Source of the DNA: a virus
Strand: one strand, 5' to 3'
DNA length: 64,000 nucleotides
IMG/VR virus record: IMGVR_UViG_3300042317_001497
Within the stretch, counting starts at the first letter, position 1, and each line of letters opens with the position of its first letter. The notes under the pieces were generated by a model. It was not told where the DNA came from. It saw only the letters and a list, made by a program, of their open reading frames with translations, and did no database searches. Shown piece after piece: positions 8,128 to 34,700 of the stretch. The translations under genes were made by a program, and so were the position numbers.

Positions 8128-11100
8128 TTATTGCTCAACAGCGGTTATAGTCCAGTTACCATCCATAAAAGTAAACATTCCTTTTTTATCCTTTACTACT
8201 GTGTAATTAAAAGGATTACTAAAAGAAACCAACATTGTTGGTATTTCTCCTGCTTTTTTACCAGCAGCATAAGCCATTTGTATTACTGCTTTATTGCCAT
8301 TATCAATAATTCCTTTACAAATAAAAGAGGGCTTAGTAATCGGCTCATAGAAACCAGTGTCTGTATCATATCGACAGAGAAGTTTACACCCTCTAGGAGC
8401 TGTATATCCCGCTCTATCTTTAACATATACTAATCTTCTTTGTCCATTAGGTAAAGGTTCTGATGAATATTCTAAATCATCTAGAAACCCTCTTGCTACA
8501 TAGGTTTCATCATAGTTATATTCTTTAACTAAATCCTCTTCCAAAACCACATAAACCATTTTATAAATACTAGCTTGATCACTAGTAGTAGACCACACCC
8601 TTTTTTCTTCATCCCATCTTAAATCTATTGGTCCTACTGGCCATAAATCTGGCCTTTCCGCCCAGTTTAAATAAAACTGCTTTAGTTTTTTCTTTGATGT
8701 CCATTTACCCTCCTTAAATTCTTGTGTTTTACCAATGATATCTCCTAATATTGAGTTTTGAACCTGTAGAAAACCACCTGTCTCATCTGATAAATCATTA
8801 GTATATTCAACTTTAAAAACATCTCTATCATCAGCTATACTAGTGAAATCATCTAATAATAAAGATGGAGATTTAATAAGATCAATAGTATCTGTCTTAT
8901 TTAATACAAATAGATCTCCGTTTTTTAGTTTTGAATATTTTGTGGAACTGGTAGATACTGATCTAGTTAATTTAAATCTTTTAGGATTACCAAATTCATC
9001 AACCTCTTTCGGTTCATCAGCAGCATTGGGAATAGGATATCCCTCCTTATCATAACCCCATCCGTGGAGCATTATGGGTCCTCTAAGACCCAAAAATCTT
9101 TGATTATTTAAAAACTGGGGATTATCCTTATTCAAAATATCTTTTTGATAGTAATCGGCATTAAATCCTAAGCCACGTTCTGTTTGTTCTTTATTTGTTG
9201 CTGGATCTATATATTTTAATAAATTTTGAGATATTTCTAAAGACTGATTTTTTTTAGGAGCCACGGTTCCTTTAGCAACAACTCGTATGCTGTGCCGACA
9301 TCTGTCTACATATGTTCCATTGTTTTGTACATTAGGATTTCTAAACTCACCATAAGGAACAACGATTGGTTGTAAACTATATAAATTAACCGGTATTTCC
9401 TCTGAAGACGAAGAAGAGTCTGAACTACTAGCAGCTGAAGTTGATGAGGAGCTGCTAATAGCTGTATTAAAATTAATTAAAGTATCAATATCATTAGTAT
9501 CAGTAATAATATAAGGAGGTAATGTTTCTATACTGGATGATGTTTTGGTTGTTTTAGAAGAATACGATATGATTTTTCTTTTATTGGCGCAATAAGAACA
9601 ATAGAATGTTCCAGTAGCGTTTTGTCCTTGCTTATTAACATATGTGTCAGATATTGATTTTGTACCCTTACAATATGGACATGATGATGATGTATATGGA
9701 ACTAAAGGATATGTAGTATTAAAAAGCGTCGGATAAAAAGATACGGGGGAAAATAAACCATCTAAACTCATTAATGATTTATTAGCGTACTCAGCATTCA
9801 TCTCTACCGCGATTTCTTTTGTTGGATATATACCAACAAAGGTATTATACCTTAAGTTTTTTTTATTCTGATTGATACCATTAGAATCACCGGTTATACT
9901 GTCATTTTTCGAAGAGCCATCCCCCAAGTCTCTGCCATAAGGCAAACTCATTATATTATTGATTTCCTCCTCAAGTTGTTCTATTTTTTCTTGTATTTGT
10001 TTTTTTAGTTGATCATTATTCGTATTTTCTTCGGTGTTTTCAAGATTTTCTAAATTCTGCCGTAAATAACTTAATCTTTTTACATTAAATAATTTATCAT
10101 TAGGTAAAAATGGTCTTGCCACACCACACATTACTTCTACGGGACTAGTAGCATAAAATTTAGAAGTTACTTCCCTAGCGCCTAATTTTCTATTATCGCC
10201 AATATCATTTAATCTTCTTTGTTTTTCATTATTAACTCTACTAATAATACTACCAGACATTGATGCAAATTGTTTATTTCTTTTAATTCCCATCAAAGCA
10301 TTTTGTTTTAATCTATCACCGGTTTCCTTATTAAAAAATCCTAATTTTCTAATATATGTTCTAAAACCATAAGTTGTTGTGATAGATCCTCCTACACTTA
10401 CCTGAATGCTACTAATCAAAGGAGCAATAGGATTAGGATTTATTGATGATAGCTTTATAGTCTCATATGTAATAGGTGAACTTGTAGTAGAACTATTACT
10501 ATAGTCAAAACCCACAAGAACTTGTCCCGCTAACGGAGCATTAGGAACAGGATTTGAATTTGAAGTATTATATTTCACATCTGTATAGTTTAAAGTATCA
10601 ATTTCTACATTATATAATTGATTATTAAATTTAATTTGATTATTTCCTTGAACAGATGGGGTAAAATAGGTAAATCTAGAACCCAAACCAAAAATAGGCA
10701 AGCCAGGCATATCTATCTGTGCTGTTTCAAGAACTTGTTGGTAATTAACATTATTTTGTATTTCTGAAATCACTCTTTGATCTAAGAAACTCATTCCTCC
10801 ATAATTCCACGGAGCAAAATCTTGGTTTTGATCTATTTTTACTCCTCCTATAAGATTCTCTATAGCTTCATTAGGATTACTAGCATCTGGAAATATATCT
10901 GATGCTATAAGATTAGGATAATTAGTCCATGGACCATAGCAAAACTGATTACTCTTAATGGGTATTCCAGCAAAAAAAGGATGCGCCATTTTTGGAGCTA
11001 TTGTCATATATTTAGGACTATTATTTCCCATATTATTTCCTAACAATAAAGCATTATTTCCAATCATAGGAGAAATAAAACTCATCATATATCCTACAAA

Positions 11101-16211: not shown

Positions 16212-19200
16212 CTACCATTCTAATAATCCAAATAGATTCTTATCCTGGTCGTTATTAAGATCGTATACTACTGAGAATGCATTAGACTGTGTAGAATTTC
16301 TCCAATATCCTGCGCTAGTACCATTTCCTTTATAAAATGCTGCTTTGACCCATTCGTTTTCTGTTGGAATACTAAATCGAGGAGGCAAACCAGTATACGG
16401 ATTTATACTATTCGGTATATCTGTAGTACTCTGAAGATTATAAACTCCATTAATTATATTTTGAGGATTATTGGGCTTATTATTATCTAGCCAATTAATT
16501 ATACTAAATAAAGCTGTTCTATTTATACCAGTCATTGGTTTATGTTTTTTGTTAACAGCAGGCGTGTATACATATTGTCCTCGTATTCCTGTTACTACTA
16601 TATCCGAAGAAATGGGCAGATTTAGTATTGAAGAAGATCCCGCTTTATATACGCTATTGAGAAAAACACAATACTCTTCTACTGTTAAATTATATTTTTG
16701 TATATAGAAAATATATCCAACAGAACCGATAGACTCAGGCTTTATTACTACTTTATTATAGCCATATGTAATAATATTATCATAAAAATGAGTATTATTT
16801 ATATCTTCTACTTTCACAAAATTAGTAAATGTATTGTCGTTAAAAGACGATGCTATCCTAATACCTATGTTATTATTATTAAAATTAATTTCTTCTCTGA
16901 ATTGTAAAGAGGGCGTGTTCAAGAGATTATCATCTAAAAATTGTAAAGACTCTGGTAGAGATCCTTGTTTTTTAAATATATCTGGACTAGTGCCTCTATT
17001 AAAGAAAACTTTCTTAACCGGATCATATGTTATCTCATAGCAGTTACCTATTTGATCAAAAGTACCATAGTAACTACTGCCTCCAATTGAACCAACATTA
17101 GCTGTAATATGTGTGCGAGTTGATATAGCTCCGACAGGAATATATACAACTCTATTTAAATTTTGATTACTATATAAAGTTCTTGAAAAAGAAGTAGTAC
17201 TATTATTAAATAAATATGTTTCACCCTGTTTTAAACTTAAAAGACTATTAAATTTACTATTTTTTGACCAACTTTTTGGAGCATTATTTTCTATACTTAC
17301 AACACTATTAATAATATTAGATAAATTACCAGGTAATGTATAAGTATTACTAAGATCATTGTTTTTAGCTGATAGTTTAATCTTAATAATTTGTCTAGGA
17401 GATTCAGAACCCCCTATCCTTTGGTAATAGCTGTCAGGATTAAGAATTCCTGTATAAAAAACATATGGAGATATATCGCTTGTAATGAGATAACCTGGAT
17501 TTTTATAGTCATTCTGGGGCAAACGAGAATCATCCAACAACAACAAGCTATTGAAAGAGCTATTTTTTCTCCAAGATGTTAATTTATTACCATCAATGTT
17601 TATTATAGATAAAGTATTATTATTAATAACTCCGGGTAAATCATTTATATAGATCTGAGTTCCATTATATGATAAAAATTGTAAATTACTATCAATAGTA
17701 ATAGATCCTATATTCGGTGTAGGAGCAGGCTGTGTTGGTACTGGTGTAGGAGTAGGAGTAGGATCAGCCTGCGGTACAATTTCATATAAAATAGGACCCT
17801 CTGATAAAAATATAGTAGTACCATCTCCAGAGTAACATACGTTTTTATTAATAGAAGTATTTAATCTTTCCTCATAGAAAAACCAATTATAACCACCATC
17901 ATTAGATGTGTAGATAGTATCCCTATTATTTGGTCCTCCTTGCTGATTCGCATATAAAACTAATTTTTGACCATCTTTAGACATAGATAGTCTTTTACTA
18001 GAAATAGCACTATTGGTGCCTGATGTGGTTTCTCTAAAGTATAAAGTACTATTTTTATCTGATTCTCCCCTAAATTTGTCTCTTGAAATAGTTGTAAATG
18101 AATCTCCCCCATTAGCGGAAATAATTAATCTTTGATTTGTAAATGGATTATTGCTAATACCAACCCATGCGGCAATCTTAGAAGCATCACTTGAAATGGC
18201 TAGTTGACTATAAAAATCATTACCTGTTTTCTTGGTCCATGATGTTCCTTTGTCGGACGATACATAAATACCATCTCCACACACAGCAAGCACAATAGTA
18301 TTTCCGTCATCAGATACGCATATTTTAGAATATGGATAATAAGTGGATATAGTATCAAAACTTTTTGATACCACCCATGTTTGTCCAGTATCTGTAGAAA
18401 CATAAACTTTCATTTGCAGGTCGCCGCTAGGTATAGAAACTCTTAAAAATGCCATAGTTGTACCATCACTAGATACAGCAACATGACTTATATTTTGAAC
18501 AAAATTTTCTCCGTCTGGTAATAAAGGAGTCCAAGTAGACATAGAGTTTGTTGATAGGTATAGTCTATACGATAGCTGTGTAGTGGAACCAAGAGTAGGA
18601 CTGTGTTGACCTCCTGCTAGAGCACCGGTTCCATTATTAAATAATGCTATAGTATTAAATTTTATCGCTGATCCTAACGTAGAAGGAGTAGAAACTGCTG
18701 GTAATATGGTTCTATACCATGAACCATTCGGCGCTTTTTTGAAAATTTGATCATTATTAACAGCGTTTACAATAGTAGGATGACCTAATACAACTGCTAT
18801 ATCATCACTATTTGTAGGAGCACTTATATCTATTATATTATCCCCTATCGTATAGTAACCGCCACTCTGTTCGTCCCCAGCTGTACCATTAAATCTTTTT
18901 ACTTCAAAATCCATAAAACTTAATGGAGTAGCTGTGGGTGTTGGTGTTGGTGTAGCGCTAGCGGTTGGAGTTGGAGATTGAGTAGGAGTAGGAGATGGCA
19001 ATGGTGTCTGAGTATTTAACGCAAAATTAGTATATAAAGATACTAGATTATATGTATTTATACAAGCTATACTCGCTTCGTAAGTATTAATACTGAGTTC
19101 TGGATTAGTGAAAATATAAGACGGTACCCTGCTCGTAAATGTTGTATCGTTTAATGGATCGTTGGGGTTGGTGGGATTGTTTAGTTTTATAATATAAGAA

Positions 19201-21983
19201 ATAATTATAGCACCAGCACCTCCTGTATTAGACGGAGGATTCCAAGAAGCATTGACTCCACCAGCTACCGGTGTGGCAACAAAATCAGTAACAATACCGG
19301 GGTTGGTAGCGGTAGTAGTTGGGGTTGGTGACGGAGTTCTTGTTGGGGTAGGATAAGGTGTAGGGCTATTAGTAGGTGTAGGAGATAGTGTAGGAGTAGG
19401 AGGTGGCACTGTTGGTGTGGAAGAAGGCGTGGGGCTACTAGTAGGCGTAGGACTGCTAGTGGGCGTGGGGCTAGTAGTAGGAGTCGGCGGAGGAGGAGGA
19501 GGATCTCCTACTATAACAGGAACGCCAAAATAATAATCATTCCAACTATTTCTAGCTCCGGATTTAATGTAAAAAGTAAGATTGTCAATATTTAAATAAG
19601 TCAAAAAAATTGTAGATGATGTTGGTATTGGTCTTTGATTACCATCAAAATAAATATTTTTTATAGTACTGTTAGGAGATCGATTTAGATAATTAGATAG
19701 GGTCACTATAGAACTAGGAATAACCAGAGTGGTATACAAATCAGGATTTGTAATAGCTCCATCAGATATATTCTTTATGCTATAACCATTGATATTTTGT
19801 GGAATATTTAAAGTATTCTGATTAGTAGTTCCAAAAATTTGTACTATATTAGCCTCACTGGGGTTTGTAGCGAAACAAAGATAATTATTGTTATAAAATA
19901 GTATATTGTCTACCGGGGGAAATAAATAATTGTGGTGTGATGATCTGGTATTGATATTGCGTAAATTAGAACATCTATCTAGTATCCGGCCGGGAACGAC
20001 GTTACCAGCGGAGTATAGTGTGCCCCTTACAAATGCAGGTTCGTAAACACGGGTATAAGAATTCCCAACCGAATAATAGCTAGAACTAGAGTCGGAAACC
20101 TTTATATCATTATTAAATGAAATAGTTTCTAAATTCAAACAATCAGCAAAAGTTCTCTTTCCTAATACCGTAGTACTAACAGGGAGATCTATATTTTTTA
20201 GGTTAGTTCCAGCAAAAGCTTCTATACCAATATATCTGATCTGAGATGATCCAAAATTAACAGATTCCAAACTTTTACAATTAGTAAAACATCTATCGAG
20301 AATGGAAATAATATTAGGATTTAAAGCAATAGACTTTAATCTAGATGTTGGCGATGGAGCTATTTTATTAAGAGGAACTAAAACCTTATAAGATGAGTTT
20401 GGAGGATTTTGTATTATGCCATCAGAGGTATCAGGAGATAGCTGAGGAGAGCCTATGTATCTAACCGGCGCTCCATTTATTAGTATAGGAAAGGTTAGAG
20501 TCTCAGGTATACTATTCCTAACACTTTCCACAGATTCTCCTGCTATTCCAATTATCATAATCCCTGTTTCTATGGAAGAATTTGATGGCCATGTGGCGCC
20601 ATTGTTGCCGACATTCACATAAGCATATGTAATATTATTGACGCTCCATGTAAAATAATAAATAGTACTTATAGGAGTAGGTAGATAACTTGTTGCTCGA
20701 TCATTGTATCTTAAGTAATAATCTGTTATATAATTTGGTAGTGGTAATGATGTCGGACTAGGTGTGGGGGTTGGAGTTCCGGTAGGTGTGGATGTTGGAC
20801 TAGTTGTGGGTGTCGGTGTAGAAGTGCTTGTTGGTGTTGGAGTTCTGGTTGGTGTGGGTGTTGGGCTGGTCGTAGGTGTTGGGCTGGTCGTAGGTGTTGG
20901 GCTGGTCGTAGGTGTTGGGCTAGGGGTGGGAGTAGGTGTCCTAGTAGGGGTCGGTCCTATCGGAGTAGCTGTTGGAGTAGCTGTTGGAGTAGCTGTTGGA
21001 GTAGCTGTTGGACGTATTGTAGGAGTAGGAGTCGGAACAACCATACCAGCACAACTATAAGTCGAAACACCATAAGACCCATCACCAAAAGTATTACTTG
21101 TTAGACAACCTGGCGCAACATCACTTTTTGTAGCATATCTCCAATATTTTGGTCCGTTAAAAGTATCATGTTGATAGAATGCCGCTTTATACCATTCATT
21201 TTTATTTAGCAAAGAATATTTCGCATCAGAACTTCTACCAATATCGTACGGATTCAAATCACCATTTATATAATAAGCGCCTCCCTCAGTTATATATATA
21301 TTATAAAGATTTCCACTTAATTTTGTATCGGGCCTACCGTTATGTAGCCAATTACAATATCTAAGAGCGGATCCCCACGATAAAGAAGTCATCGGTTTAT
21401 TGCCATATGCACCAAGCACAGAGAAAGTATTGCCGTTCCTTGCAATATCTGGGCGTGGTTGCGTACCCCAATACGGATTATATAACTGATACGAATCTAC
21501 ATAATTTTGGCCACTAGCTCTATTATCTTGTACAGTATTGAGAAAAATTACATATTCACAAACAGTGACAGGATATCTACCTATTTTATAGGTATAATCA
21601 ACTCGTCCTATACCATTATTATCGGGAATATTAAAAGGACTACCAACATCAACAAGATTTGGTAAATTAGAAGGATTAGTGCGTGAACCTATACGAAACC
21701 CTTGCATGACACCTTCAAGGATCAAAGTTCTTCCTGGCGGCTGGGCGACTTCCTGCCAATTATATCCAGCAGAAGATATTTCATAATCATTAGAGTACCA
21801 ACTTCCTCCAAATATACCTGGTACTGCATCTGTGCCTACTCGAACCACATCTCCCATTTCCCATACATTTCCGGACTGGTCATAAGTGCCGTAATAAGAT
21901 GGTCCTCCATTGCTGCCTACTGTAGTTATGGAGGATGGTCCATTACAACCGCCTCCTACAAAATAATTGGCAAAATTTGTCAT
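16212..21983 (-). CDS. Mosaic adhesin/receptor-binding protein: FGE-sulfatase-like, PT linker, BspA-type LRR, FN3, Asp-box propeller, second FGE-like domain
   Basis: SYYGTYDQSGNVWE/GGSW/GFR and EWYKAAFY motifs; LRR_5-like CF.NC.SL repeats (~20100-20350); FN3-like SWNPPSNTGG (~19050-19300); S-x-D-x-G-x-(T/S)-W Asp boxes (~17900-18400); long PT tracts. Confidence 0.8.
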   Translation of the reverse strand: MTNFANYFVGGGCNGPSSITTVGSNGGPSYYGTYDQSGNVWEMGDVVRVGTDAVPGIFGGSWYSNDYEISSAGYNWQEVAQPPGRTLILEGVMQGFRIGSRTNPSNLPNLVDVGSPFNIPDNNGIGRVDYTYKIGRYPVTVCEYVIFLNTVQDNRASGQNYVDSYQLYNPYWGTQPRPDIARNGNTFSVLGAYGNKPMTSLSWGSALRYCNWLHNGRPDTKLSGNLYNIYITEGGAYYINGDLNPYDIGRSSDAKYSLLNKNEWYKAAFYQHDTFNGPKYWRYATKSDVAPGCLTSNTFGDGSYGVSTYSCAGMVVPTPTPTIRPTATPTATPTATPTATPIGPTPTRTPTPTPSPTPTTSPTPTTSPTPTTSPTPTPTRTPTPTSTSTPTPTTSPTSTPTGTPTPTPSPTSLPLPNYITDYYLRYNDRATSYLPTPISTIYYFTWSVNNITYAYVNVGNNGATWPSNSSIETGIMIIGIAGESVESVRNSIPETLTFPILINGAPVRYIGSPQLSPDTSDGIIQNPPNSSYKVLVPLNKIAPSPTSRLKSIALNPNIISILDRCFTNCKSLESVNFGSSQIRYIGIEAFAGTNLKNIDLPVSTTVLGKRTFADCLNLETISFNNDIKVSDSSSSYYSVGNSYTRVYEPAFVRGTLYSAGNVVPGRILDRCSNLRNINTRSSHHNYLFPPVDNILFYNNNYLCFATNPSEANIVQIFGTTNQNTLNIPQNINGYSIKNISDGAITNPDLYTTLVIPSSIVTLSNYLNRSPNSTIKNIYFDGNQRPIPTSSTIFLTYLNIDNLTFYIKSGARNSWNDYYFGVPVIVGDPPPPPPTPTTSPTPTSSPTPTSSPTPSSTPTVPPPTPTLSPTPTNSPTPYPTPTRTPSPTPTTTATNPGIVTDFVATPVAGGVNASWNPPSNTGGAGAIIISYIIKLNNPTNPNDPLNDTTFTSRVPSYIFTNPELSINTYEASIACINTYNLVSLYTNFALNTQTPLPSPTPTQSPTPTASATPTPTPTATPLSFMDFEVKRFNGTAGDEQSGGYYTIGDNIIDISAPTNSDDIAVVLGHPTIVNAVNNDQIFKKAPNGSWYRTILPAVSTPSTLGSAIKFNTIALFNNGTGALAGGQHSPTLGSTTQLSYRLYLSTNSMSTWTPLLPDGENFVQNISHVAVSSDGTTMAFLRVSIPSGDLQMKVYVSTDTGQTWVVSKSFDTISTYYPYSKICVSDDGNTIVLAVCGDGIYVSSDKGTSWTKKTGNDFYSQLAISSDASKIAAWVGISNNPFTNQRLIISANGGDSFTTISRDKFRGESDKNSTLYFRETTSGTNSAISSKRLSMSKDGQKLVLYANQQGGPNNRDTIYTSNDGGYNWFFYEERLNTSINKNVCYSGDGTTIFLSEGPILYEIVPQADPTPTPTPVPTQPAPTPNIGSITIDSNLQFLSYNGTQIYINDLPGVINNNTLSIINIDGNKLTSWRKNSSFNSLLLLDDSRLPQNDYKNPGYLITSDISPYVFYTGILNPDSYYQRIGGSESPRQIIKIKLSAKNNDLSNTYTLPGNLSNIINSVVSIENNAPKSWSKNSKFNSLLSLKQGETYLFNNSTTSFSRTLYSNQNLNRVVYIPVGAISTRTHITANVGSIGGSSYYGTFDQIGNCYEITYDPVKKVFFNRGTSPDIFKKQGSLPESLQFLDDNLLNTPSLQFREEINFNNNNIGIRIASSFNDNTFTNFVKVEDINNTHFYDNIITYGYNKVVIKPESIGSVGYIFYIQKYNLTVEEYCVFLNSVYKAGSSSILNLPISSDIVVTGIRGQYVYTPAVNKKHKPMTGINRTALFSIINWLDNNKPNNPQNIINGVYNLQSTTDIPNSINPYTGLPPRFSIPTENEWVKAAFYKGNGTSAGYWRNSTQSNAFSVVYDLNNDQDKNLFGLLEW
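20760..21040 (-). repeat. Pro/Thr linker with perfect 18-bp and 12-bp tandem repeats
   Basis: + strand GTTGGGCTGGTCGTAGGT x3 (20860-20913) and GGAGTAGCTGTT x4 (20962-21009). Confidence 0.9.
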
Positions 21984-21999
21984 AAAAAATTTATCCTAT

Positions 22000-24954
22000 T
22001 TATATATTAGCTATAGAGCCGAAAACAGTATTAATAGCACTAACCATAGTTCCATTTTTAATAAATATAGAACACGGAGTTCCAGCATAAGCAGAGAAAA
22101 ATTCTACTGCACCTACTTCAATACCATTTTTTCTAATACTCATAGTAGCAGGGAGAGATGTCCCAAAGTCATTGATAGCTATAAATCTAAATTCACTACC
22201 AATTTGATCAGTAATAAAAGTTATACCATTATTACTATCACTATAATTACCGTTTCCAGCAGAAGTATTAGCTACTAAAGTAACATTATATGGTATATTA
22301 CTAGGAGTAACAACCGGTACACTACTTGTTGGAGCCGGGGTTGCTCCTATGGAGGTTGGTGTGGATGTTGGCGTCTGGGTTGGTGTTGGAGTTGGGGTCG
22401 AAGAAGAAGTTGCTGTTGGTGTCATGGTTATATTGTCCTTATCATTAACACAAGTGATTGTTAAGAAATCCATACTACTCTTGTCCGTATCAGGATCTGT
22501 TAAAACCACCTTTAGAACACTGGGCGATTGTGCATTAACATTAATTAGTACAGAGATATTGCTTAATCCTCCATTGCCAACAGAAACTATACCTGTAGCT
22601 GGTGATATATCAACTTGCGGATTAAGGGATGTTACTTCATAATGGTAATTATATCCTGGTTTACCATTAGCTATATTGATAGTAATTGGATTATTCTTAT
22701 AACATCTACCATCGGGTATAACAACAGACTCAGAAGCAAAAGATACAGATGGAACAGTATTACAACAGCCCGGTAAGCAATCCTCACATAAAATATTAAT
22801 AGTTTCATTAATACCATAGCACAATGTACTCAAACCACTAGGGGCTCCGACATTAATATTTAGTAAAGCATATGGACTTATACTAGCTCCACAAAGACCA
22901 CCATCACAATTACCGAATAAATTTTGATTATTCTCATTATTTTCGAAATAAAATTTAGTATTAATGATATAATTTTTTTTGCTTGGTGAAAATACTCCGC
23001 TGGATGGAGAAATAACATAGTCAGCATTACTATCTACTTCACTCAATCCATATCTATAAGTACGTCCTGGTAACACGCCCGTTACCATTATAGATAAATT
23101 ATATTCATTATTGCCAGAGCCAGCCAGAGTTAGATTTCTAACATTGAAGCCATCAAAAACATAGGCCCCAGCCTGTTTACTAACATCTCCATTAATAGCT
23201 ATTTGCATACTACAATCTACAGGCGTTGGAGTTGGAGTTGGAGTAACACCAGGAATAATATTATCTTGATCGTTTTCACAAGTTAAAACTAAAAAGTCCA
23301 TGCTGCTTCTGTTGGTACTAGGATCTGTTAATATAACTTGAATTACAGCAGGAGACTGTCCATTCAGATCCACAAGAGTTGTGATAGTACCAGACCCTCC
23401 ATCTCCTCCAGCATATAGTCCTTCAAATGGAGATATTTCAACTTGAGGATTGGTACAAGAAAAAGCGTATTGATAATTATATCCGGCTTGACTATTAGTA
23501 ACATTTACACTAATAGGATTAGTTTTATAACATCTGCCATCCTGAATAGTAATATTTTTAGGATAAAAATCTACAGCGGCCACAGAAGCTGTGGATGTAG
23601 GAGTAGGAGTACTGGTGGGAACTGGTGTGCTGGTGGGCGTAGGTGTTCTTGTTGGAAATGGTGCCACATTATCTTGTGGATTTTCGCAAGTGAGTACTAA
23701 GAAGTCCATACTACTACGATTGGTGGCAGGATCAGTGAGTTCTACTTGTATGACCGCTGGGGATGCTCCATCAGTATCTATTAAAGTTACTATAGTACCG
23801 GATCCTGTTTCTCCGACAGAAAAAATACCACTAGAAGGATAAAATTTTATATCTGTATTAGCCGAAGAAAAATAATAATTATAATCATATCCAGCATTGC
23901 TATTTGTTACATTCACACTAATAGGATTAGTCTCAAAACATCTTCCATCGGGTATGATTATATCATTAGGATCAAAAGATACTGTAGCAACAGATGCTGT
24001 AGAGGTAGGCGTCGGAGACATCGACGGTGTTGGCGTAGGAGTTCTTGTTGGGGTGCTTGTTGGTGTGTTGGTAGGAGTAGGAGAAGGAGTAGGTGTTGGA
24101 GATGCTGTAGGACTAGGAGTTGGTGTTCTGGTTGGTGTGGATGTTATGGCTGGTAGGCAACCACTACATATCAAATTGATATCTTGTGTAAAAACATTAC
24201 ATCCTTCATATGAAGGAGTTATACTAAGATCAAAAATATTATAAATAACAGGAGGCGGATTATTAATATTTATATTTCCACTAACATATAATGGATCAAA
24301 ATAAAATTGAGACTCTATTAAACAACGATCTGAAGTTGGTTTTAAAATTCCTGTAACAGGAGACATTATACCGTTCCAGTTGCCAGCATTTTTAACCAAT
24401 GAATAAGTATATTCTTCCTGAGGAATTAAACCACTAACTAAAATTGAAAGACTATGACGATTACTCGCCATTGTGACCTGATAAGCTCCTAGACCATCAT
24501 TAGAAAATTTCTTATTCGCTAAACTCAAATCTCCATTGATAAAACAAGAAATAGGAGGACAGCAGTTAATATCTTTTACACATGGTCCTACTGAATTCTC
24601 ATCTGGTAATGATCCTCCTATAGATGGTACTGTAAGTGGTAATACATAAGACGATCTTGCTATAAAATAATACGACTCATTGGAAAGCAATTGTGTTAAT
24701 GATGAATCACTACTAGGAACATATCTTTCACCACTAGGTATAGTCCAGAAAACCGGTATAGAACCATTAACAGTCTGATTACTATAAATAGTAGAAATAC
24801 CATTGATAAATTCATTATACTGAACAAATAATGGATTTACTATATTAGAGGAAGGATTATTAGGATCTGGTATATATCCACTAGGAGCCACCATTAAATT
24901 AAAAGGTAGCTTTCCATTATACTTTTCTATAGAAAATTCCGATATAATATTCAT
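22000..24954 (-). CDS. Repeat-built virion protein with Ig-like modules and PT linkers
   Basis: Three copies of a ~103-aa module and two of a ~130-aa module separated by PT tracts. ATG 24954 (MNIISEF) is preferred over 25005 because a GGTGTA motif lies 36 nt upstream. Confidence 0.75.
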   Translation of the reverse strand: MNIISEFSIEKYNGKLPFNLMVAPSGYIPDPNNPSSNIVNPLFVQYNEFINGISTIYSNQTVNGSIPVFWTIPSGERYVPSSDSSLTQLLSNESYYFIARSSYVLPLTVPSIGGSLPDENSVGPCVKDINCCPPISCFINGDLSLANKKFSNDGLGAYQVTMASNRHSLSILVSGLIPQEEYTYSLVKNAGNWNGIMSPVTGILKPTSDRCLIESQFYFDPLYVSGNININNPPPVIYNIFDLSITPSYEGCNVFTQDINLICSGCLPAITSTPTRTPTPSPTASPTPTPSPTPTNTPTSTPTRTPTPTPSMSPTPTSTASVATVSFDPNDIIIPDGRCFETNPISVNVTNSNAGYDYNYYFSSANTDIKFYPSSGIFSVGETGSGTIVTLIDTDGASPAVIQVELTDPATNRSSMDFLVLTCENPQDNVAPFPTRTPTPTSTPVPTSTPTPTSTASVAAVDFYPKNITIQDGRCYKTNPISVNVTNSQAGYNYQYAFSCTNPQVEISPFEGLYAGGDGGSGTITTLVDLNGQSPAVIQVILTDPSTNRSSMDFLVLTCENDQDNIIPGVTPTPTPTPVDCSMQIAINGDVSKQAGAYVFDGFNVRNLTLAGSGNNEYNLSIMVTGVLPGRTYRYGLSEVDSNADYVISPSSGVFSPSKKNYIINTKFYFENNENNQNLFGNCDGGLCGASISPYALLNINVGAPSGLSTLCYGINETINILCEDCLPGCCNTVPSVSFASESVVIPDGRCYKNNPITINIANGKPGYNYHYEVTSLNPQVDISPATGIVSVGNGGLSNISVLINVNAQSPSVLKVVLTDPDTDKSSMDFLTITCVNDKDNITMTPTATSSSTPTPTPTQTPTSTPTSIGATPAPTSSVPVVTPSNIPYNVTLVANTSAGNGNYSDSNNGITFITDQIGSEFRFIAINDFGTSLPATMSIRKNGIEVGAVEFFSAYAGTPCSIFIKNGTMVSAINTVFGSIANI

Positions 24955-24989
24955 TTTATAGCCTTCAGGTTTACTTTTATAATAAGATA

Positions 24990-24995
24990 TACACC
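24990..24995 (-). promoter_or_regulatory. GGTGTA motif, candidate late promoter element
   Basis: GGTGTA-TATCT-TATTAT, 36 nt upstream of ATG 24954. Confidence 0.45.
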
Positions 24996-25006
24996 ACAAT
25001 TTCAAA

Positions 25007-25997: not shown

Positions 25998-26519
25998 TTA
26001 TGTAGTCCCGCAATTCTTACAACAGATAGATATTGTTTTTTCTGTTAGTGGAATATTACCAGATAATACAGTAAACTTAAAAATACTAATTGGATTATTA
26101 CCATTTATCTCTACGTCTATAGGAATAATAGCTTCTCTAAGAGCTACAGGATTAGAACCAGCCACGGAGGATCCTGTATAATTAGAGTATACCGGTGTTC
26201 TAACAGTAGTTGTTGAATCATTATTCGTTAGTTCTTGTATTTCAAAAGAATAAGTTGTTGGAGAAGGCTGTAATCCTCTGATTTTTACAGTTAGAACATC
26301 ACCATAACAACAAAAATCAGAAACATTATCGAACTCTATATCTGGTACTGCTATATAGCATACTTGTTGTCCTACAAACTCTACAATTGCTCCTGACACT
26401 AGTTTGGTATAAAGTTTACCAGTGACACTATTCATTACAAGTTCCCCTACTTCCAATTGATTAGAGGCTGGTGCAGAGGTTGATGTCTCGTCTCTTTTAG
26501 GTTTAAATTTCATGAACAA
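25998..26519 (-). CDS. Small fibre-associated protein
   Basis: N-terminus KFKPKRDETSTSAPASNQLEVGELVMNSVTGKLY matches the common tail-fibre N-terminal motif (KR...P...L..GEL..N...GKLY); Cys-terminated Ig-like C-terminus. Confidence 0.7.
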   Translation of the reverse strand: MFMKFKPKRDETSTSAPASNQLEVGELVMNSVTGKLYTKLVSGAIVEFVGQQVCYIAVPDIEFDNVSDFCCYGDVLTVKIRGLQPSPTTYSFEIQELTNNDSTTTVRTPVYSNYTGSSVAGSNPVALREAIIPIDVEINGNNPISIFKFTVLSGNIPLTEKTISICCKNCGTT

Positions 26520-29500
26520 ACTCCTGTGAACGATACTTTGCCGAAATCCCAGACATTATTATCTACTGGTTCTGGAGGATTGTATGGGTCTGTGCCTATA
26601 CTAGCTATACTAGCATACATTCCTCCTCCACTGCTATTAATAGCTCTTATTCTAAATATATATCTAGAGTTATTATTTAGTCCAGTTAAAATTTTTGGAG
26701 ATGCGGCTACTATATTATTAATTTCTGAAGTAGCATTAATCCAGGTATTTCCGCCATCAGAAGATCTTTGTATAAAGTATCCCGTTACGCTAGAACTACC
26801 AACATTAGAGGGACTATTCCAACTTAAAGTTGCTTGTAAATTTTGTCTAGTAATTTGTAAATTAGTTGGCGCCCCAGGAACATCAGTATCCGGTGTAACT
26901 TGATTAGAAATTTCTGAAGCAGCTCCATTCCCGATTTCGTTTATTGCAGAAACTCTGAAGTAATAATCTATACCATTAGTTAAACCTGTAATATTGGCGA
27001 ATGTATCAGTTGATGGAGCTTTGTTATATACTGTCCATGTTCCGCCATCATTAGCACTATATTCTATTAGATAATTAGTTATAGGAGATCCTCCGTCATC
27101 AGCTGGAGAGGTCCATGTTAATGATGCAGAAGAATTGCCTTCTACTCCTACTAGCGATGTTGGAGAATCTGGGATGGACGCTGGCGCAGTGGGTACTTGT
27201 GATACCAAATAACCAGAAGCATTAATAGTTAAAGGAGCATTTGGAACAAAAGTATTTACTCCTTGTTTCAATACGATGCTCTGAGTTATCAGACCCTCTG
27301 CGTATATATATTTGTTAACAGTCAAATCTGCATATAGAGCTAATGTTGAAGATCCACTAGGTATACTATTAATGATATAAGGAGTTTTTGTATTGATACA
27401 GGTTTTAGCTGATTCGTCTTTATTAAAACCTATTGGTAAAGTTTTACCTATATCCGAATATCCAGATAAATAAACTCCAGAAATTAAACTTCCAGAAACA
27501 GCATTAGATGTATGAGAATCAACCTTGAATGCTGGGATCAAACCACTAGGCAATCCATAAGAATCTTTACCAAAAATATTCTCTTCATATCTGTTGTATT
27601 GGGTGGGTTTATGTCCATATATGGCAAAGTCTATTCTTTCAGCTAGAGTATTAAATGTGGTAGCCGTATCTGGACGAATACTAATAGTATTTAATGTACT
27701 AGGTTTAAATTTATATGGACTATTCGGATCATCATCAGATTCACATGAAAATCCGCCAACCGCAGAAGGCTCTAACTGCATAGATAAATATCCGCCTCTA
27801 TTAACAGCAAAAGCTACACCAGATACTCCAGAAGCTGTAGACCAAGGAATAACAGGACAGAATCTCATTCCTAGTCCATCGGTTGTTGTGTAGAAAGTGT
27901 CTGTAGACGGAGTAACCGACCCAACACCATCTATAATAAAATCTCCATCAGCCGCTTTAACATAACTAATTTCTCTAGTTTCATTATTTACTACAGCGAT
28001 AGTATCAGTATATGGAAACTCTTTTCGTAAAGTTGCCAAATCTCCTTCTGTAAAAACTATCTCATTATTTTTAACTAAAACTGATCGTTTGAGATATCTA
28101 GTCCATTTAACACCGTCTGCATTTAAATAAGTAGCTGGTTGCCAAAGGGCATCTCCTTCACCATTATGGGTAAGTATACTTCCAGAAAAAAATGGATTAT
28201 CCTCACCTATCTGTATAGAAGCAGTTTTAAAAGAGGTTTTTATTTCTACGCCAGATGGATCCAAAACAATATCTTCATACTGTCTGATAAATTTTTCTGA
28301 ATCCAAATATAAAGGACTTAAAATAGAACCATCAGGGATCTGAATACCAGAACCATCAGATGCTGCTTTGATAAGAAGATTCTGATAAGTATTAGTTTGT
28401 CCCGTATTCTCATCACTATAGAATACTCCGCCAGGATAGTTAGTTACAGGATTACCATCCGGTTTTAAATTAATAATATTCTTTACGCTTAAAGTATCTA
28501 CTATTATCCCGCTAATATTTAATGGTTGTGGAGTTTTAATTAAGACAGCTCCACTAGTAGCTAGTATAATACCAGTAGTACTAATTGTTGTTGTATATGT
28601 TGAACCTCCTAGAGGTATAGAAGGACCTATAGATAATATGCCACTATTCTTAATTAAAGAAACCTTTTTATTATCAGCATCTATTAGATTACTAATTTTT
28701 AAACTATCAGAATATACACAACCGCTTACGCTTAAAGAAGCATAGTTGCCGCTAGATAAAGAATAAGGTAGGTTTCTTTTAACTGTTACTGCAGAGTGGC
28801 CTACTGAAGGAATAGTTTCAACAGGCTGATAATAAGCAGACTTATACCATTCATTCAAAGATGGAAGTCCATATTTTTGAAATCTTTTCTTTTGAACGGA
28901 TGAGTCCTCAACAGATATAGTATATGCCCCGTCATTTAATAAATCTGGATCATATGAGGATCCGGACGGAGCGCCTTGGTCTATCCAATTGATAAATCTT
29001 AGAGCAGACAAATAATCTACATATACAACCGGCTTGTATACCATTCCTGATACTGTAGAGTAGCTATATGGGCCAGAGCCAGATCTTGCTATACCTCCTA
29101 ATAAACCAGACGAAGCCATATTGGAGTTATATAAAGAGTATGGATCCCCAGACAAAGCAACAGAATTTAAAAATTTACAATATTGATTATTAGTTATTTC
29201 TGATTCGGTCATGCCGAAACTATAAGGAACAGAGCCAAGATTAGGAATAGTTAATAGTTCGGGAGAGGATGTATAATCATATAGTCCTGATGTATCCTCA
29301 GGATTATTCACATCATCTACTGATATAAATTTAAGATCTAGTAAATTGGATATATATGCACTACCAGCAGCGTCTAGATTATTACGAACTCTAAATCCTA
29401 TCTTATTATTTTCTGTATTATTTGGGAAGGCTCTGATACTCTTATACTCATTAGCATTAGTGGAATTCCAAGAACCACCAGCTACATATTCTATATTATC

Positions 29501-31699
29501 AGTAGAGTATATTTTATCATTCTCTATCCATTCAGAAACATTATCTCCTTGATCATATGTTCCATAATAACTTTTTGTAATATCATCCCCAACAATCCTT
29601 AATACTCCTGTGGTGCTAGGATTATAGGATGTATATACTCCTTTAGAAGATGATGACTGATTAATATTTGCAAATACCTCTAGAGCTGGAATATTATCTA
29701 TCCCATAAACTAGAAAATTAATATCTTTATGCAGATTATTGAATACCGTATCTGTTTGGGGTCTGATGCTCAGAATATTTGCTGTTGAATCTGAAACATT
29801 GCCGCTTTTAACATATCTGGTATTTTTAAGATACCCGCCCTGAGTTATAGAATAGACCTTAACATTTGCTACAGTATTTACTGTGATATTACTATCTACT
29901 AAAATTGAAATAATATTATTATTTTCTATTTCGATGTCTTTTACTATTCTATAAAAAACATCAGTATCTGTTTCTATAGCAACTTGATCTCCTATAGCAA
30001 ATTCTTTTACAGGAATAGGGTCTATGGGGGCGATTTGTTTCAAACAGACATTTGCTGTTCTTGCGGGATACTGATTCCATGATAGTGATTTTTCAGTAAT
30101 AAAAAACTGTTCCGGAGTTAATGACCCAACTATTAATCCACTAGCACTTGTTGTTAGTATTCTACCAGAAGGAATAGATCCTATAGTAAAAGAAGAATCA
30201 TTTGTAGTTAAAACTCCTGAAGAATTTACCATCAATAACTTATTAGGAGAAATATTTGGTAATGAAAGTGTAGAGATAGAGCCTGAACCAATATTAATTT
30301 TAGTAGCATTGAAAATTCCGGTCATGCTAATATTATTAGTATTAATATTGATAGCATTATTAGTTACAGTAATATTATTATTAGAGTATCCTAAAACACT
30401 AGCTCCTTGATTATTAATTACCAGAGCATTGCCACTAGTATATCCAACAGTTACGGCATTAGGATTTGCTTGTAATACAGAAACTCCGGATCCTGAGCTA
30501 TCCACTAATAATTCAATTTGTCCTTTCGTAGAACCTTCTGTTAAAACCAGGGCTTTAGATTGTAATTTTCCATATTCTACTTTATTTCCCAAATTATTTT
30601 TAGCAGCAAGGGAAAGTGATGAAACAACCGAGTTGGCGTCGATAGAAGATGCTGGTTTATGATATAGAGTTATATTAGCAGGATAGCAAGAACTTCTATT
30701 TTCTAATCTTATACCCTCTTTACAATTATTATTAATTAGATGTAAAACTGTTTGAGGTGTGGCACCAGAAGGAATATTAAGACCAAGTTTACCATCATAT
30801 GTAAAAAATAAACTATTATTAAGTCCTGAGCCCTTAACTAAAAAGTTAGAATCTGTACCATCATTATTTATTATTGTTGGGGAATTGCCAGATGATGGTA
30901 TAATAGAATGTGCAGATGATGATGATGATGATCCAAATAGTAGTTGTCCGTTACTGGACCAATATACATCTGTACCATCTATGGTTCCATCATTATTAAA
31001 TTGTAATGAGCGGTCGTCTCCTGCTCCTTCTACACTGGATATTGTGTATGACCCGTCTGAAAGTCCCATAGCTTTTATGTTTGGTGCGTCTATTTGGTCT
31101 TTAAGTTCTACCCAATCTGTGCCAGTAGAAATAACTTGTGTAAATTTATCGCTACCTGTTAATGTTGTAAGAATTTCATTATTAGATTTTTTAATGATTA
31201 AGTCATTAGATCCAGAACCAACTGTTTTGAATTTAAGTTCTAATCCGGCACATTTTGAAGGATCTGGTAATGAGGCTTCTGAAGCATTATTACTAGTGTC
31301 CACAATATAAACACATCGAATAGAATCAGCAATAAAATTATTGTTTTTTAATACTACATTATTAAAGCCCGTATTAAAATTATATTCGTTTGCGAATATG
31401 TAAAAACTTTTGGTTCCGCCAGCTGAAAAATCAACAAGTTGATCATTATTAGAAGATTTTACAACCTGTACTCTTTCAACACATATAGAAGAATTTACTA
31501 CAACAACCTTACCTATACCAATCTCCCACAATACTTTGCTATTATTAACGTTACGAACCAGATATGGGATATGAGCATTAATATGGTCAATATTTAAAGA
31601 CTTATAACCAGGAAGGGAAGAGCCTATTAAAAACTTATCATTTTGATAAGAAAAATATGAACCGATATTATCAAATATATATATTGGTGAATTAATCAT
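26510..31699 (-). CDS. Tail fibre/adhesin with FGE-sulfatase-like domain and two C-terminal fibronectin type III domains
   Basis: N-terminal fibre motif WEIGIG...SSNN..LVDFSAG.K; FGE motifs at ~28820-29590; two FN3 units (PDSPT.L...LTWTSPADDGGSPITNY.IEYS and PGAPTNL...LSWNSPSNVGSSSVTGY) at ~26560-27190. Confidence 0.8.
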   Translation of the reverse strand: MINSPIYIFDNIGSYFSYQNDKFLIGSSLPGYKSLNIDHINAHIPYLVRNVNNSKVLWEIGIGKVVVVNSSICVERVQVVKSSNNDQLVDFSAGGTKSFYIFANEYNFNTGFNNVVLKNNNFIADSIRCVYIVDTSNNASEASLPDPSKCAGLELKFKTVGSGSNDLIIKKSNNEILTTLTGSDKFTQVISTGTDWVELKDQIDAPNIKAMGLSDGSYTISSVEGAGDDRSLQFNNDGTIDGTDVYWSSNGQLLFGSSSSSSAHSIIPSSGNSPTIINNDGTDSNFLVKGSGLNNSLFFTYDGKLGLNIPSGATPQTVLHLINNNCKEGIRLENRSSCYPANITLYHKPASSIDANSVVSSLSLAAKNNLGNKVEYGKLQSKALVLTEGSTKGQIELLVDSSGSGVSVLQANPNAVTVGYTSGNALVINNQGASVLGYSNNNITVTNNAININTNNISMTGIFNATKINIGSGSISTLSLPNISPNKLLMVNSSGVLTTNDSSFTIGSIPSGRILTTSASGLIVGSLTPEQFFITEKSLSWNQYPARTANVCLKQIAPIDPIPVKEFAIGDQVAIETDTDVFYRIVKDIEIENNNIISILVDSNITVNTVANVKVYSITQGGYLKNTRYVKSGNVSDSTANILSIRPQTDTVFNNLHKDINFLVYGIDNIPALEVFANINQSSSSKGVYTSYNPSTTGVLRIVGDDITKSYYGTYDQGDNVSEWIENDKIYSTDNIEYVAGGSWNSTNANEYKSIRAFPNNTENNKIGFRVRNNLDAAGSAYISNLLDLKFISVDDVNNPEDTSGLYDYTSSPELLTIPNLGSVPYSFGMTESEITNNQYCKFLNSVALSGDPYSLYNSNMASSGLLGGIARSGSGPYSYSTVSGMVYKPVVYVDYLSALRFINWIDQGAPSGSSYDPDLLNDGAYTISVEDSSVQKKRFQKYGLPSLNEWYKSAYYQPVETIPSVGHSAVTVKRNLPYSLSSGNYASLSVSGCVYSDSLKISNLIDADNKKVSLIKNSGILSIGPSIPLGGSTYTTTISTTGIILATSGAVLIKTPQPLNISGIIVDTLSVKNIINLKPDGNPVTNYPGGVFYSDENTGQTNTYQNLLIKAASDGSGIQIPDGSILSPLYLDSEKFIRQYEDIVLDPSGVEIKTSFKTASIQIGEDNPFFSGSILTHNGEGDALWQPATYLNADGVKWTRYLKRSVLVKNNEIVFTEGDLATLRKEFPYTDTIAVVNNETREISYVKAADGDFIIDGVGSVTPSTDTFYTTTDGLGMRFCPVIPWSTASGVSGVAFAVNRGGYLSMQLEPSAVGGFSCESDDDPNSPYKFKPSTLNTISIRPDTATTFNTLAERIDFAIYGHKPTQYNRYEENIFGKDSYGLPSGLIPAFKVDSHTSNAVSGSLISGVYLSGYSDIGKTLPIGFNKDESAKTCINTKTPYIINSIPSGSSTLALYADLTVNKYIYAEGLITQSIVLKQGVNTFVPNAPLTINASGYLVSQVPTAPASIPDSPTSLVGVEGNSSASLTWTSPADDGGSPITNYLIEYSANDGGTWTVYNKAPSTDTFANITGLTNGIDYYFRVSAINEIGNGAASEISNQVTPDTDVPGAPTNLQITRQNLQATLSWNSPSNVGSSSVTGYFIQRSSDGGNTWINATSEINNIVAASPKILTGLNNNSRYIFRIRAINSSGGGMYASIASIGTDPYNPPEPVDNNVWDFGKVSFTGVCS

Positions 31700-31792: not shown

Positions 31793-34700
31793 TTATGGTT
31801 TGCCTGCTGGTTTGGAAGGACTTCCTAACTCCACGGCCCCGTCGTTATTTTTTGTTATCACTTTTCTTAATTCGTCTATCTGTCTACCAACTTCTGCTAC
31901 TACGCTAGACGCTATAGTCTGCTCAATACTTTGTAATATACTAGCTCCTTCTTTAAGATTAATATTTACTTCATGAGTAGCACTAATATTAATGGTGGGA
32001 GGAATATCTATAGAAGATAATTGTTTAGTTAATGAATTTAAGCTAGAAACAAAGTCCCCCATTACCTTTTGTCCAAAATCAAATTTAATAGTTGATAATG
32101 ATTTTACATTTCGACTAAAACTCTTACTAAAAGAGCTTAGAACTGTAGAGGAAACAGAATCTAATCCTAGTAGGCTAGATATACCAGCAGATACAGCATT
32201 CCCTATGTTTAGTCCTCCTCTATCAAAGTACTTCGGCTGAACAACTACTCCTCCTGTACTATAATTACCACTATTAATACTTTTTAATAATGGAAGATTA
32301 TTCTGAGTAGCTCGTCTATTAACAACAAACTCTCCAGGGGTTAACATAGCAGGAACAGTATCGGTACCACGAGGAGCAAAGTTTACAAGTGTTCCATTAC
32401 TAGCATAAATAAGACCACCATTAGCTCTGGTCTGTGGTTTCTGAAATTCTGGCGCCTTTTGATCCCTGCTCTCTTTAGCTTTTTTCATCTCGTCTAATTT
32501 AATACGACTTGGTAAGAGTCCAAAAAATCCAGCAGTTAAATTTTGTAAACTTGTATTAGCTGTATTATAATTATCATCAAGATATTTATTATCATCTGGT
32601 GTAGGATCTTTTGATGATAAATATGAATCTTGAAAGAGATACCAATTTTTAAGTGCAGTTATATCAGTTTTAACTTTATCTAAATTTTTATTTTTATTAT
32701 CAGCAGGGAAAAATGATAATAATTGATCTATAAGACTTTGTCTAGCTTGTACGGGAAAAAAGCTATAGGGATTTAGAGATAGTGCTCCTAGCTCTCTTAT
32801 GCTTTTAGGAGTATCTTTATCTGTTAATTTTTTATATGTTATAATGCCAGTTTTGTTATCAACGGTGGCTGTTTCACCAGTGCCAACAGTATCTCGAATA
32901 GCCTTATCTACTGCTTTCTGTTCTGCTTCTGGAATTTTCTTATCCGCAGCCACCCCTTTCTCATTAGTCTCTGCTAAAATCATTTCTGCAGCTATTTTGC
33001 TTTTTCCAGCATTTTTTAACATTTGACCATAGGATTTAATTTTTTCAAAAAGTGGTGTGACATTTTTCACTTTCTCTAAATCAAATTCTCCAGCCCCTAA
33101 TATAGATCCTAGTTCTTTGGAAGGATCTGATAGGGATAGGGCTCCAATAAATTTCGATACTGCCCCAACATTTCCCCAGGCTGATCCTAACTGGTCATTA
33201 AGAAAATCTCCTTTATTATTGGTTATTCTTTTTCCAAATTCTTTTTGTAGTTTATTTAAGCCTTCTGAGTATGATTTAAATTGATTAGAACTATCAAGTT
33301 TAGTTAAACCAAAATTAGGAATAAATTTTTTGAATACTCCTATAGATGGTAGAATAATATTTTTAATTGCTTCATTGGCATAATCAAGATAAGATTTTCT
33401 AAGCCATGAAGCTTTTGCTTTTTTTCCTTTTCTATCCACACTGGTAGCAAGTTTAGCAGAAGGCTGGAGTGTTGTTTCTCCTCTCTGTTCCATCATTCTA
33501 TTTTTGGCATCTTCTAATTGCTGGAATAAGAAAATCTCTGGTTTGGGATCGGGAATTAACGTATATGCTTTACTTATATCTGATGGGTCTATACCTCCCT
33601 GTATTCCTTCTTCTTGTGTAAGAAGTCTTACTAAGTCTATATTATCTAATTTTAAAGGTTCTTTTGTATTATAGGATCCTGATAATAACTGTGCTATTAA
33701 TGCGGGGTCTTGTGATGTAAATAGTTGCTGTTTAGCCTCTAAAAATGGATTTAGTAGAGGAGCTTCTTTGGATGAGGATAATAAGAATCCATCTAGAAAT
33801 TCATCTGTTGGCGGAATATATCCTTTTTCTTCTGTTAACTTGGGTATCTTTATTTTTTGAGTATTAAATTTGCCTTCATATTTTTCTGATCCTATAGCTA
33901 CTTCGAAAGCATGAGATGTTACTGCTTCATCCAATTGAAAAAGACTTTCTCTTTTCTTGTTTTTTTCTTCTATATCAGATACAATATCTTTGATACGATC
34001 AAGATCTATTGGCTTATTACTCCAATTAAAAGACTGCGCAGTACTATCCTTAACTATATTTAGCTTATTACTATCGCTAGAAAATACATGATCTTTATTA
34101 TCTTTATAAGAATCAACAATTCTATTCCACTTATCATTAAATTGTTTTCTATATATATAAGCAAAATCAGTAATTTTCCCGTAATCTCCCCAGCTTGATG
34201 ATAATTGATTTTTAGGAATAGAAACAAATAAACCACTTAAGTTATCGTCGTACAATGATTCTAATAAAGTATTCATTTTATTATTAGAAGCTTTACTGCT
34301 ATTAATAATAGTAAAATTATTAATATTTTCATATTGATTTTTTAACTCTTCGAAATATTTTAATCTTTCCTTTATATATTTTTGTTTACTCTCAACATCA
34401 GTACCTTTTGCTGTGTTCTCAAGAACACCAGGGCGCAAAATGTCTGTATTAGCTGCTCCTAATTGTTTTCTACCTTTTAGATCCGTTCCCATGAAAGAGG
34501 TAGTTTTTTGAACAGTTGTTAAAGCATTACCATTACCGGTAACTAATCCTTGAGGCTTGGAGTTTGTCCATTGTGCATTATAATATTTATCTTTTACTGG
34601 TTTGGTTGTAATAAATAGTGATCTTTCTAGTATTTTGTCCAGAGACTGTTTATTGCCGTTTTTATATTCTCTATCCCCTGTGTATTTGTCTTCTGCTGAA

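Follow-up and report, generated by a model that had tools for sequence, protein, structure and literature searches.

In both bacteria and phages, the main scaffold of hypervariable binding proteins is a domain of the formylglycine-generating enzyme (FGE) type with a C-type-lectin (CLec) fold. The founding members of the Pfam family PF03781, pFGE/SUMF2 (PDB 1Y4J) and FGE/SUMF1 (1Y1E), carry the motifs Y.I..Y.VT..EY..F, VSW.dA.aYC.W, EWe.AA, YGlYD..GNVWEW, GGSW and GFR in what is here called the canonical order. This study examined a domain with likeness to these motifs in a 64,000-nucleotide window (the whole stretch of DNA analysed, to which all coordinates refer) of the IMG/VR virus record IMGVR_UViG_3300042317_001497, a structural module of an uncultured phage. 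An earlier note, made from the sequence alone, had claimed that the domain is a circular permutation of one FGE-sulfatase (C-type-lectin fold) domain and the first of three copies. This copy 1 lies at 21069-21983 on the minus strand, within one base of the position given in that note, and comprises amino acids 1-305 of a 1923-amino-acid open reading frame (ORF). Residues 1-305 show both the swapped order and the unit boundaries of a true circular permutation. Very probably, the element is one complete circularly permuted FGE-sulfatase-type CLec-fold domain that serves as the N-terminal, non-enzymatic binding head of a Pro/Thr (PT)-linked, multi-lectin, fibre-like protein.

Swapped order of the two halves

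Translation of copy 1 gave exactly the motif order described before. The protein starts as MTNFANY...SYYGTYDQSGNVWE...GGSW...GFRIGS and continues as LVDVG...YKIGRYPVT..EY..FLN...YCNWLHNG...NEWYKAAFY...YATKSDVAP, after which the PT linker begins. The equivalent of the canonical back half (21675-21983, minus strand, amino acids 1-103) contains ANY, the YGTYDQSGNVWE hairpin, GGSW, a variable segment and the GFR strand, and the equivalent of the front half (21069-21659, minus strand, amino acids 109-305) contains the LVDVG strand, the Y.IG.Y.VT..EY..FLN, YCNWLHN and NEWYKAAFY helices and the YATKSD loop. The segment between GGSW and GFR (21702-21803, minus strand, amino acids 61-94) is shifted towards the N-terminus, as had been proposed, and in a 104-sequence alignment it varies more than any other part of the family. 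The tail after YATKSD (GDG...SYGVSTY) was considered as a remnant of a duplicated hairpin and rejected; its GDG motif recurs throughout the permuted family and is a continuation of the canonical loop.

Membership of the superfamily is clear from the PF03781 score of residues 1-305 (41.0 bits against a gathering cut-off of 23.3). In a canonical member, a single colinear match spans most of the 255 profile positions; copy 1 gave no such full-length colinear match and showed the two partial stretches in swapped order that the permutation predicts, with amino acids 20-43 matching profile positions 166-188 and amino acids 131-272 matching positions 36-126. A second profile, the canonical-unit hidden Markov model (HMM), was built from 79 canonical-order units of close relatives, which themselves match PF03781 in one colinear stretch (positions 34-254); in permuted relatives, the match is limited to about 35-135. 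On copy 1, this model matched at HMM positions 193-285 for amino acids 3-103 and at positions 6-190 for amino acids 109-299, placing the cut near position 190. All three copies in the window are matched as two swapped fragments each, and all three, once their sequences are doubled, give one full-length colinear match across the artificial junction (for doubled copy 1, HMM positions 6-288 at residues 109-420, 223 bits), the behaviour expected of a circular permutant.

Proteins of solved structure display the same exchange. A profile of the permuted family aligned its positions 164-241 with residues 35-132 of the pFGE chain 1Y4J and its positions 72-133 with residues 198-266, and the sequences of CarF and TvpA (Treponema denticola variable protein 1) gave the same swapped stretches. 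Similarly, the back-half part of the A3 profile, from the 104-sequence alignment, corresponds to pFGE 198-266 and TvpA 183-292. A phmmer search of the domain alone found no match among PDB sequences, in contrast to the family profile.

The two further copies that had been announced exist and have the same swapped order. Copy 3 (28817-29632, minus strand) is embedded at about amino acids 690-961 of a 1729-amino-acid ORF, and the divergent copy 2 (16260-17108, minus strand) forms the C-terminus, about amino acids 1626-1908, of the same 1923-amino-acid ORF that begins with copy 1. An HMM of the permuted unit matched all three colinearly, with 278 bits for copy 1 (amino acids 2-308), 191 bits for copy 2 and 194 bits for copy 3; with PF03781, copies 2 and 3 scored 34.8 and 29.8 bits. 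The three are only 27-31% identical to each other (27% for copy 2 against copy 1). Copy 2 has lost GGSW, carries a long insertion that separates the hairpin from the GFR equivalent and forms the longest branch of the tree. About 50 residues upstream of it (amino acids 1572-1625) also align to canonical HMM positions 154-190; to judge by this alignment, copy 2 may be cut at a different point or may retain a duplicated remnant.

Unit boundaries and predicted fold

Copy 1 is delimited on both sides: the initiator methionine precedes the back half, a PT linker of about 100 residues (20739-21035, minus strand, about amino acids 317-415; seen in the translation and as the PT-coding DNA repeat family D1) follows directly and marks the C-terminal domain boundary, and no complementary halves flank the unit. 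The same MsNFAN start is seen in relatives, P0006 among them. With the 305 residues as query, 4993 cluster representatives were retrieved at E<=1e-3; the stricter limit of E<=1e-30 left 245, many of them in one colinear stretch covering query residues of about 3-303; because the whole unit matches 245 representatives at this level, copy 1 is not a chance match.

The organization of these relatives supports the same boundaries. Among the best 150 cluster representatives, a single back-front unit was seen in 34, two units in 29 and three in 5, and 35 were tandem canonical (NCNC) proteins. In permuted-phase proteins, the junction from back to front half is always tight (median 0 amino acids) and the junction from front to back half holds a linker of 10-757 amino acids or other domains; canonical-phase proteins have the opposite pattern. 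Additionally, the permuted unit occurs as a stand-alone protein of about 300-330 amino acids: 87 of 114 newly retrieved homologues of 247-530 amino acids are single permuted units, and many such single-unit homologues carry only 10-35 extra residues.

About a dozen relatives constitute a second permutation class, cut at canonical-unit HMM positions 138-163 instead of near 190. The cut lies at about 140 in P0162, P0201, P0206, P0208, P0220, P0227, P0234 and P0255 and at about 160 in P0212 and P0215; in P0162, for example, amino acids 4-158 correspond to HMM positions 138-287 and amino acids 164-297 to positions 6-142. On trees, units of this second class are placed among the type-I permuted units.

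At the level of structure, AlphaFold2 with the 104-sequence alignment modelled copy 1 as one compact body (predicted local distance difference test, pLDDT, 86.4; predicted template modelling score, pTM, 0.89); from the single sequence, the model was unusable (pLDDT 30.6). In the alignment-based model, the GFR strand (residues 94-96) is joined through a short, confident loop to the LVDV strand (110-113), all three helices that characterize the fold are seen, and the lowest pLDDT values (55-74) fall in the variable segment. When a VIA search of 48,161 chains was made with this model, all 14 chains with Z>=2 were FGE-fold proteins (CarF, PorK, TvpA, ToxD, EgtB, pFGE, CalU17, PvdO, OvsA, SenA, OvoA and TaqVP), led by CarF (Z 6.0), PorK (5.8), TvpA and ToxD (both 5.3) and pFGE (4.7). 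By this similarity to solved members, the model has a C-type-lectin-like fold of the FGE subtype. The alignments repeat the exchange seen with the profiles: the solved chains pair through their N-terminal parts with model residues 105-311 (CarF 2-195, TvpA 64-245, pFGE 27-220) and through their C-terminal parts with residues 1-101, an example of the latter being residues 335-442 of EgtB-IV (8vig; root-mean-square deviation 2.6 A over 87 residues).

Combined, these observations suggest a simple topology. The chain would start in the long loop (ANY) of the canonical domain and run through the back half, that is, the YGxYDxxGNVxEW hairpin, GGSW, the variable segment and the GFR strand; a 13-residue hairpin would then join the GFR strand to the normally first strand (LVDVG), and the front half would follow as far as the YATKSD loop. 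With the old termini joined and new termini opened in a loop, both halves are predicted to form one compact domain and to pack as in the canonical fold.

Some points weigh against this reading. The relatives behind the canonical-unit HMM were retrieved with the query itself and are not fully independent of it; the Pfam family and the PDB sequences agree with the result. VIA Z-scores reach only 4-6, moderate values because the sequential alignment covers only one half at a time. Lastly, Foldseek, which is sequential and local, found no match at E<=0.001 in either PDB or BFVD, its best relevant rows being short FGE-family alignments of 60-87 columns.

The alternative with the most in its favour is that each half is what remains of a separate, truncated FGE domain of a tandem pair, and that the halves are either decayed or, in an oligomeric fibre, complement those of adjacent chains by domain swapping. 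Tight tandem canonical arrays do occur among close relatives (the 35 NCNC proteins and the zero-linker array of locus L001, described below), fibre proteins are usually oligomers, and the fold of the permuted domain is a predicted one. Nevertheless, this explanation is improbable: the unit runs from the initiator methionine to the PT linker, it is conserved in hundreds of clusters, including single-unit proteins of about 300 amino acids, its two halves are conserved to a similar degree, and the AlphaFold2 monomer is one confident rigid body. Of the two findings that the earlier note had named as overturning its proposal, a single colinear full-length profile match and a derivation of the halves from two truncated tandem domains, neither applies to copy 1, and a circular permutation of one domain is supported by the swapped PF03781 stretches and the single full-length match after doubling.

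Distribution and origin of the permuted unit

The distribution of the permuted form was surveyed by contrasting the best 79 loci of 305 IMG/VR stretches with the best 79 of 503 prokaryote stretches (one genome per species) that encode relatives. In the viral loci, 85 of 92 matching ORFs were permuted (70 CN, 14 CNCN and 1 CNCNCN), a count to be read with the reservation that loci were ranked with the permuted query, which biases the viral side towards permuted forms and tells against taking the contrast at face value. The bacterial loci held no permuted form among 94 ORFs, canonical units standing singly in 72 ORFs and in tandem in 8, and were mostly metagenome-assembled genomes (MAGs) of Planctomycetota and Verrucomicrobiota with single or tight tandem canonical units. 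The permuted form is common in uncultured phages as represented by these viral loci. The ORF of L001, from a Deltaproteobacteria MAG, consists of three canonical FGE units without any linker (amino acids 108-376, 376-637 and 637-904); a permutation by duplication and deletion would be expected to pass through zero-linker tandem arrays of this kind.

Trees were computed from single-unit proteins only, with the cut-point columns removed, since phase is ambiguous inside tandem arrays and inflates the counts of change. A tree constrained to hold all permuted units together had a likelihood above that of the free quick tree and was not rejected (p-AU 0.90). This result is compatible with a single origin of the permuted units and is no proof of it; non-rejection of the single-origin tree, next to free trees that are poorly resolved, speaks against placing much weight on it. 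A plausible route would be truncation at both ends of a tight tandem canonical array, as found in surface proteins of the Planctomycetota/Verrucomicrobiota type, by duplication and deletion, followed by radiation in phages.

A broader proposal, that the permuted FGE/CLec module is a phage-specific invention which arose once from tight tandem canonical arrays and radiated as a portable receptor-binding head, is tentative and rather doubtful as a whole. If it were true, the chain ends would have moved from the base strands to the side of the long loop, so that the fibre would present the variable face differently, and the module could be placed at either end of a giant fibre or within it; the three copies in the window occupy all three of these positions. 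The permuted family would then deserve a model of its own, and the second cut point, near canonical-unit HMM position 140, would indicate that re-phasing took place more than once.

A binding module in a phage fibre and its described relatives

The host ORF (16212-21983, minus strand, 1923 amino acids) is tail-fibre-like and is encoded downstream of the tape measure gene. Its architecture reads permuted FGE domain, PT linker, BspA-type leucine-rich repeat (LRR), PT linker, fibronectin type III (FN3)-like part, PT linker, Sortilin/BNR-like propeller, PT linker and a second permuted FGE domain, with matches to LRR_5 (1.5e-15) and to Sortilin-Vps10 (1.5e-07, below the cut-off). In this setting, the permuted domain is likely a non-enzymatic receptor-binding head. 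By analogy with TvpA/Mtd-type proteins, it would bind the host surface, probably a glycan or a protein, with specificity residing in the segment from GGSW to GFR and without mutagenic retrohoming. That segment, amino acids 61-94, has the highest column entropy (2.6-2.9 bits) and the most gaps in the 104-sequence alignment, and it corresponds to the variable region of the variable proteins of diversity-generating retroelements (DGRs) of the TvpA type.

This correspondence raises the question of whether the domain is itself a DGR target, with the permutation relocating the variable region within the gene. In favour are the variability of the GGSW-GFR segment, the highest in the family, and the bacterial canonical relatives that are DGR targets with adenine-specific pairs of template and variable repeats (TR/VR). 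Two such DGR-type repeat pairs were observed in canonical-order relatives, the variable copy closing the FGE-domain gene at its 3' end: one in locus L028 from an Akkermansia muciniphila MAG (6792-6922 vs 8554-8684, 21 of 23 mismatches on adenines of one copy) and one in locus L044 from a Planctomycetota MAG (6720-6851 vs 8483-8614, 15 of 16). For the phage domain, however, the idea is very improbable: no TR/VR-like repeat with adenine-specific mismatches was found in the 64-kb window or in the 79 viral loci searched together with flanks of 3 kb, the ORFs scanned in these 64 kb of phage genome yielded no reverse transcriptase, and the three copies in the window share little identity. Neither of the two hallmarks of a DGR variable protein, a template repeat and a nearby reverse transcriptase, was thus seen within the window, and any link of the permuted domain to DGRs would be one of analogy.

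That the domain acts on the virion as an enzyme of the FGE/EgtB/PvdO superfamily, with the activity of an oxidase or one resembling a sulfoxide synthase, as its PF03781 homology and the structural matches to CarF, ToxD, EgtB and PvdO might suggest, is barely credible, since the pair of catalytic cysteines that follows GGSW in FGE is absent (no cysteine between GGSW and GFR in the translation of copy 1, nor at the aligned positions of the family profile), the DinB domain found in EgtB is lacking, no enzyme-level NCBIfam model was reached, and the context is a PT-linked multi-adhesin fibre.

The surrounding genes fit a structural module. The window encodes a tape measure protein of 4450 amino acids (31793-45145; PF10145), a portal-like gene (61459-63666) and a cement protein. 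Giant minus-strand ORFs of 1729, 173, 329, 1001, 1923, 651, 2029 and 2325 amino acids follow the tape measure gene, the first of them (26510-31699, minus strand), which holds copy 3, adjoining it. The 1001-amino-acid ORF (22000-25005, minus strand) contains three copies of a module of about 120 amino acids (...VNVTNS.AGY.Y.Y...TDP.T.RSSMDFL..TCEN), parted by PT linkers (DNA repeat family D3) and belonging to no Pfam family. Further observations include a 335-amino-acid protein with a proprotein-convertase P-domain (51146-52153, minus strand; PF01483, 2.9e-09) in the tail-gene region and a 546-amino-acid DUF285 repeat protein (53171-54811, minus strand; PF03382, E 1e-74), whose DNA has a 72-nt periodic repeat in nine copies (family D2) and a G+C content of 0.42-0.45, compared with about 0.33 elsewhere. 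An Mtd_N domain (PF18454) opens two adjacent proteins (55138-56166 and 56185-57591, both minus strand), the larger of which also matches PHROG head-decoration and tail-fibre families. Since 50,697 GenBank phage records held no match either to 19 kb of the window (megablast) or to the domain (tblastn), no cultured relative can be named.

Recognition of the permuted unit has practical consequences. No published description of a permuted FGE/CLec domain was found in the open-access literature, and the source names of these proteins are 'formylglycine-generating enzyme' or 'hypothetical'. With current profile models, permuted proteins are annotated only as an 'FGE-sulfatase' of half length or are mistaken for a 'formylglycine-generating enzyme'. 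With the permuted form being large and apparently phage-restricted, the receptor-binding heads of many uncultured large phages become recognizable and can be correctly delimited. In this family, moreover, circular permutation has occurred in nature and tandem intermediates still exist, which makes it useful both for research on how folds evolve and for the engineering of lectin-fold binders with new attachment points.

Compared with pFGE/SUMF2 and FGE/SUMF1, the phage domain has the permuted instead of the canonical order, with the cut near canonical-unit HMM position 190, and lacks the two catalytic cysteines of FGE. TvpA (PDB 2Y3C) belongs to the same fold family (VIA Z 5.3 with 145 residues aligned, together with a profile match); TvpA and other FGE-type CLec-fold DGR variable proteins, such as TaqVP (5VF4), are likewise non-catalytic and carry a variable ligand-binding segment between GGSW and GFR. 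TvpA differs in having the canonical chain order and in being a DGR-diversified bacterial lipoprotein, whereas the phage domain is a module of a fibre protein with no DGR seen. The closest canonical-order relatives, at 34-41% identity, are surface proteins of Planctomycetota and Verrucomicrobiota (loci L001, L013 and L024), whose tight tandem arrays offer a substrate for permutation by duplication and deletion; these proteins are canonical, bacterial and often DGR-linked, and none of the 94 ORFs surveyed is permuted. One canonical FGE-sulfatase surface protein (P0250) also carries a PEP-CTERM domain (PF07589). Mtd of Bordetella phage BPP-1 lies outside the FGE-sulfatase sequence family and is a trimeric protein of canonical order with a C-terminal, DGR-diversified variable region, but it resembles the permuted domain as the receptor-binding head of a phage tail fibre with the CLec fold, and two other ORFs in the window carry Mtd_N domains.

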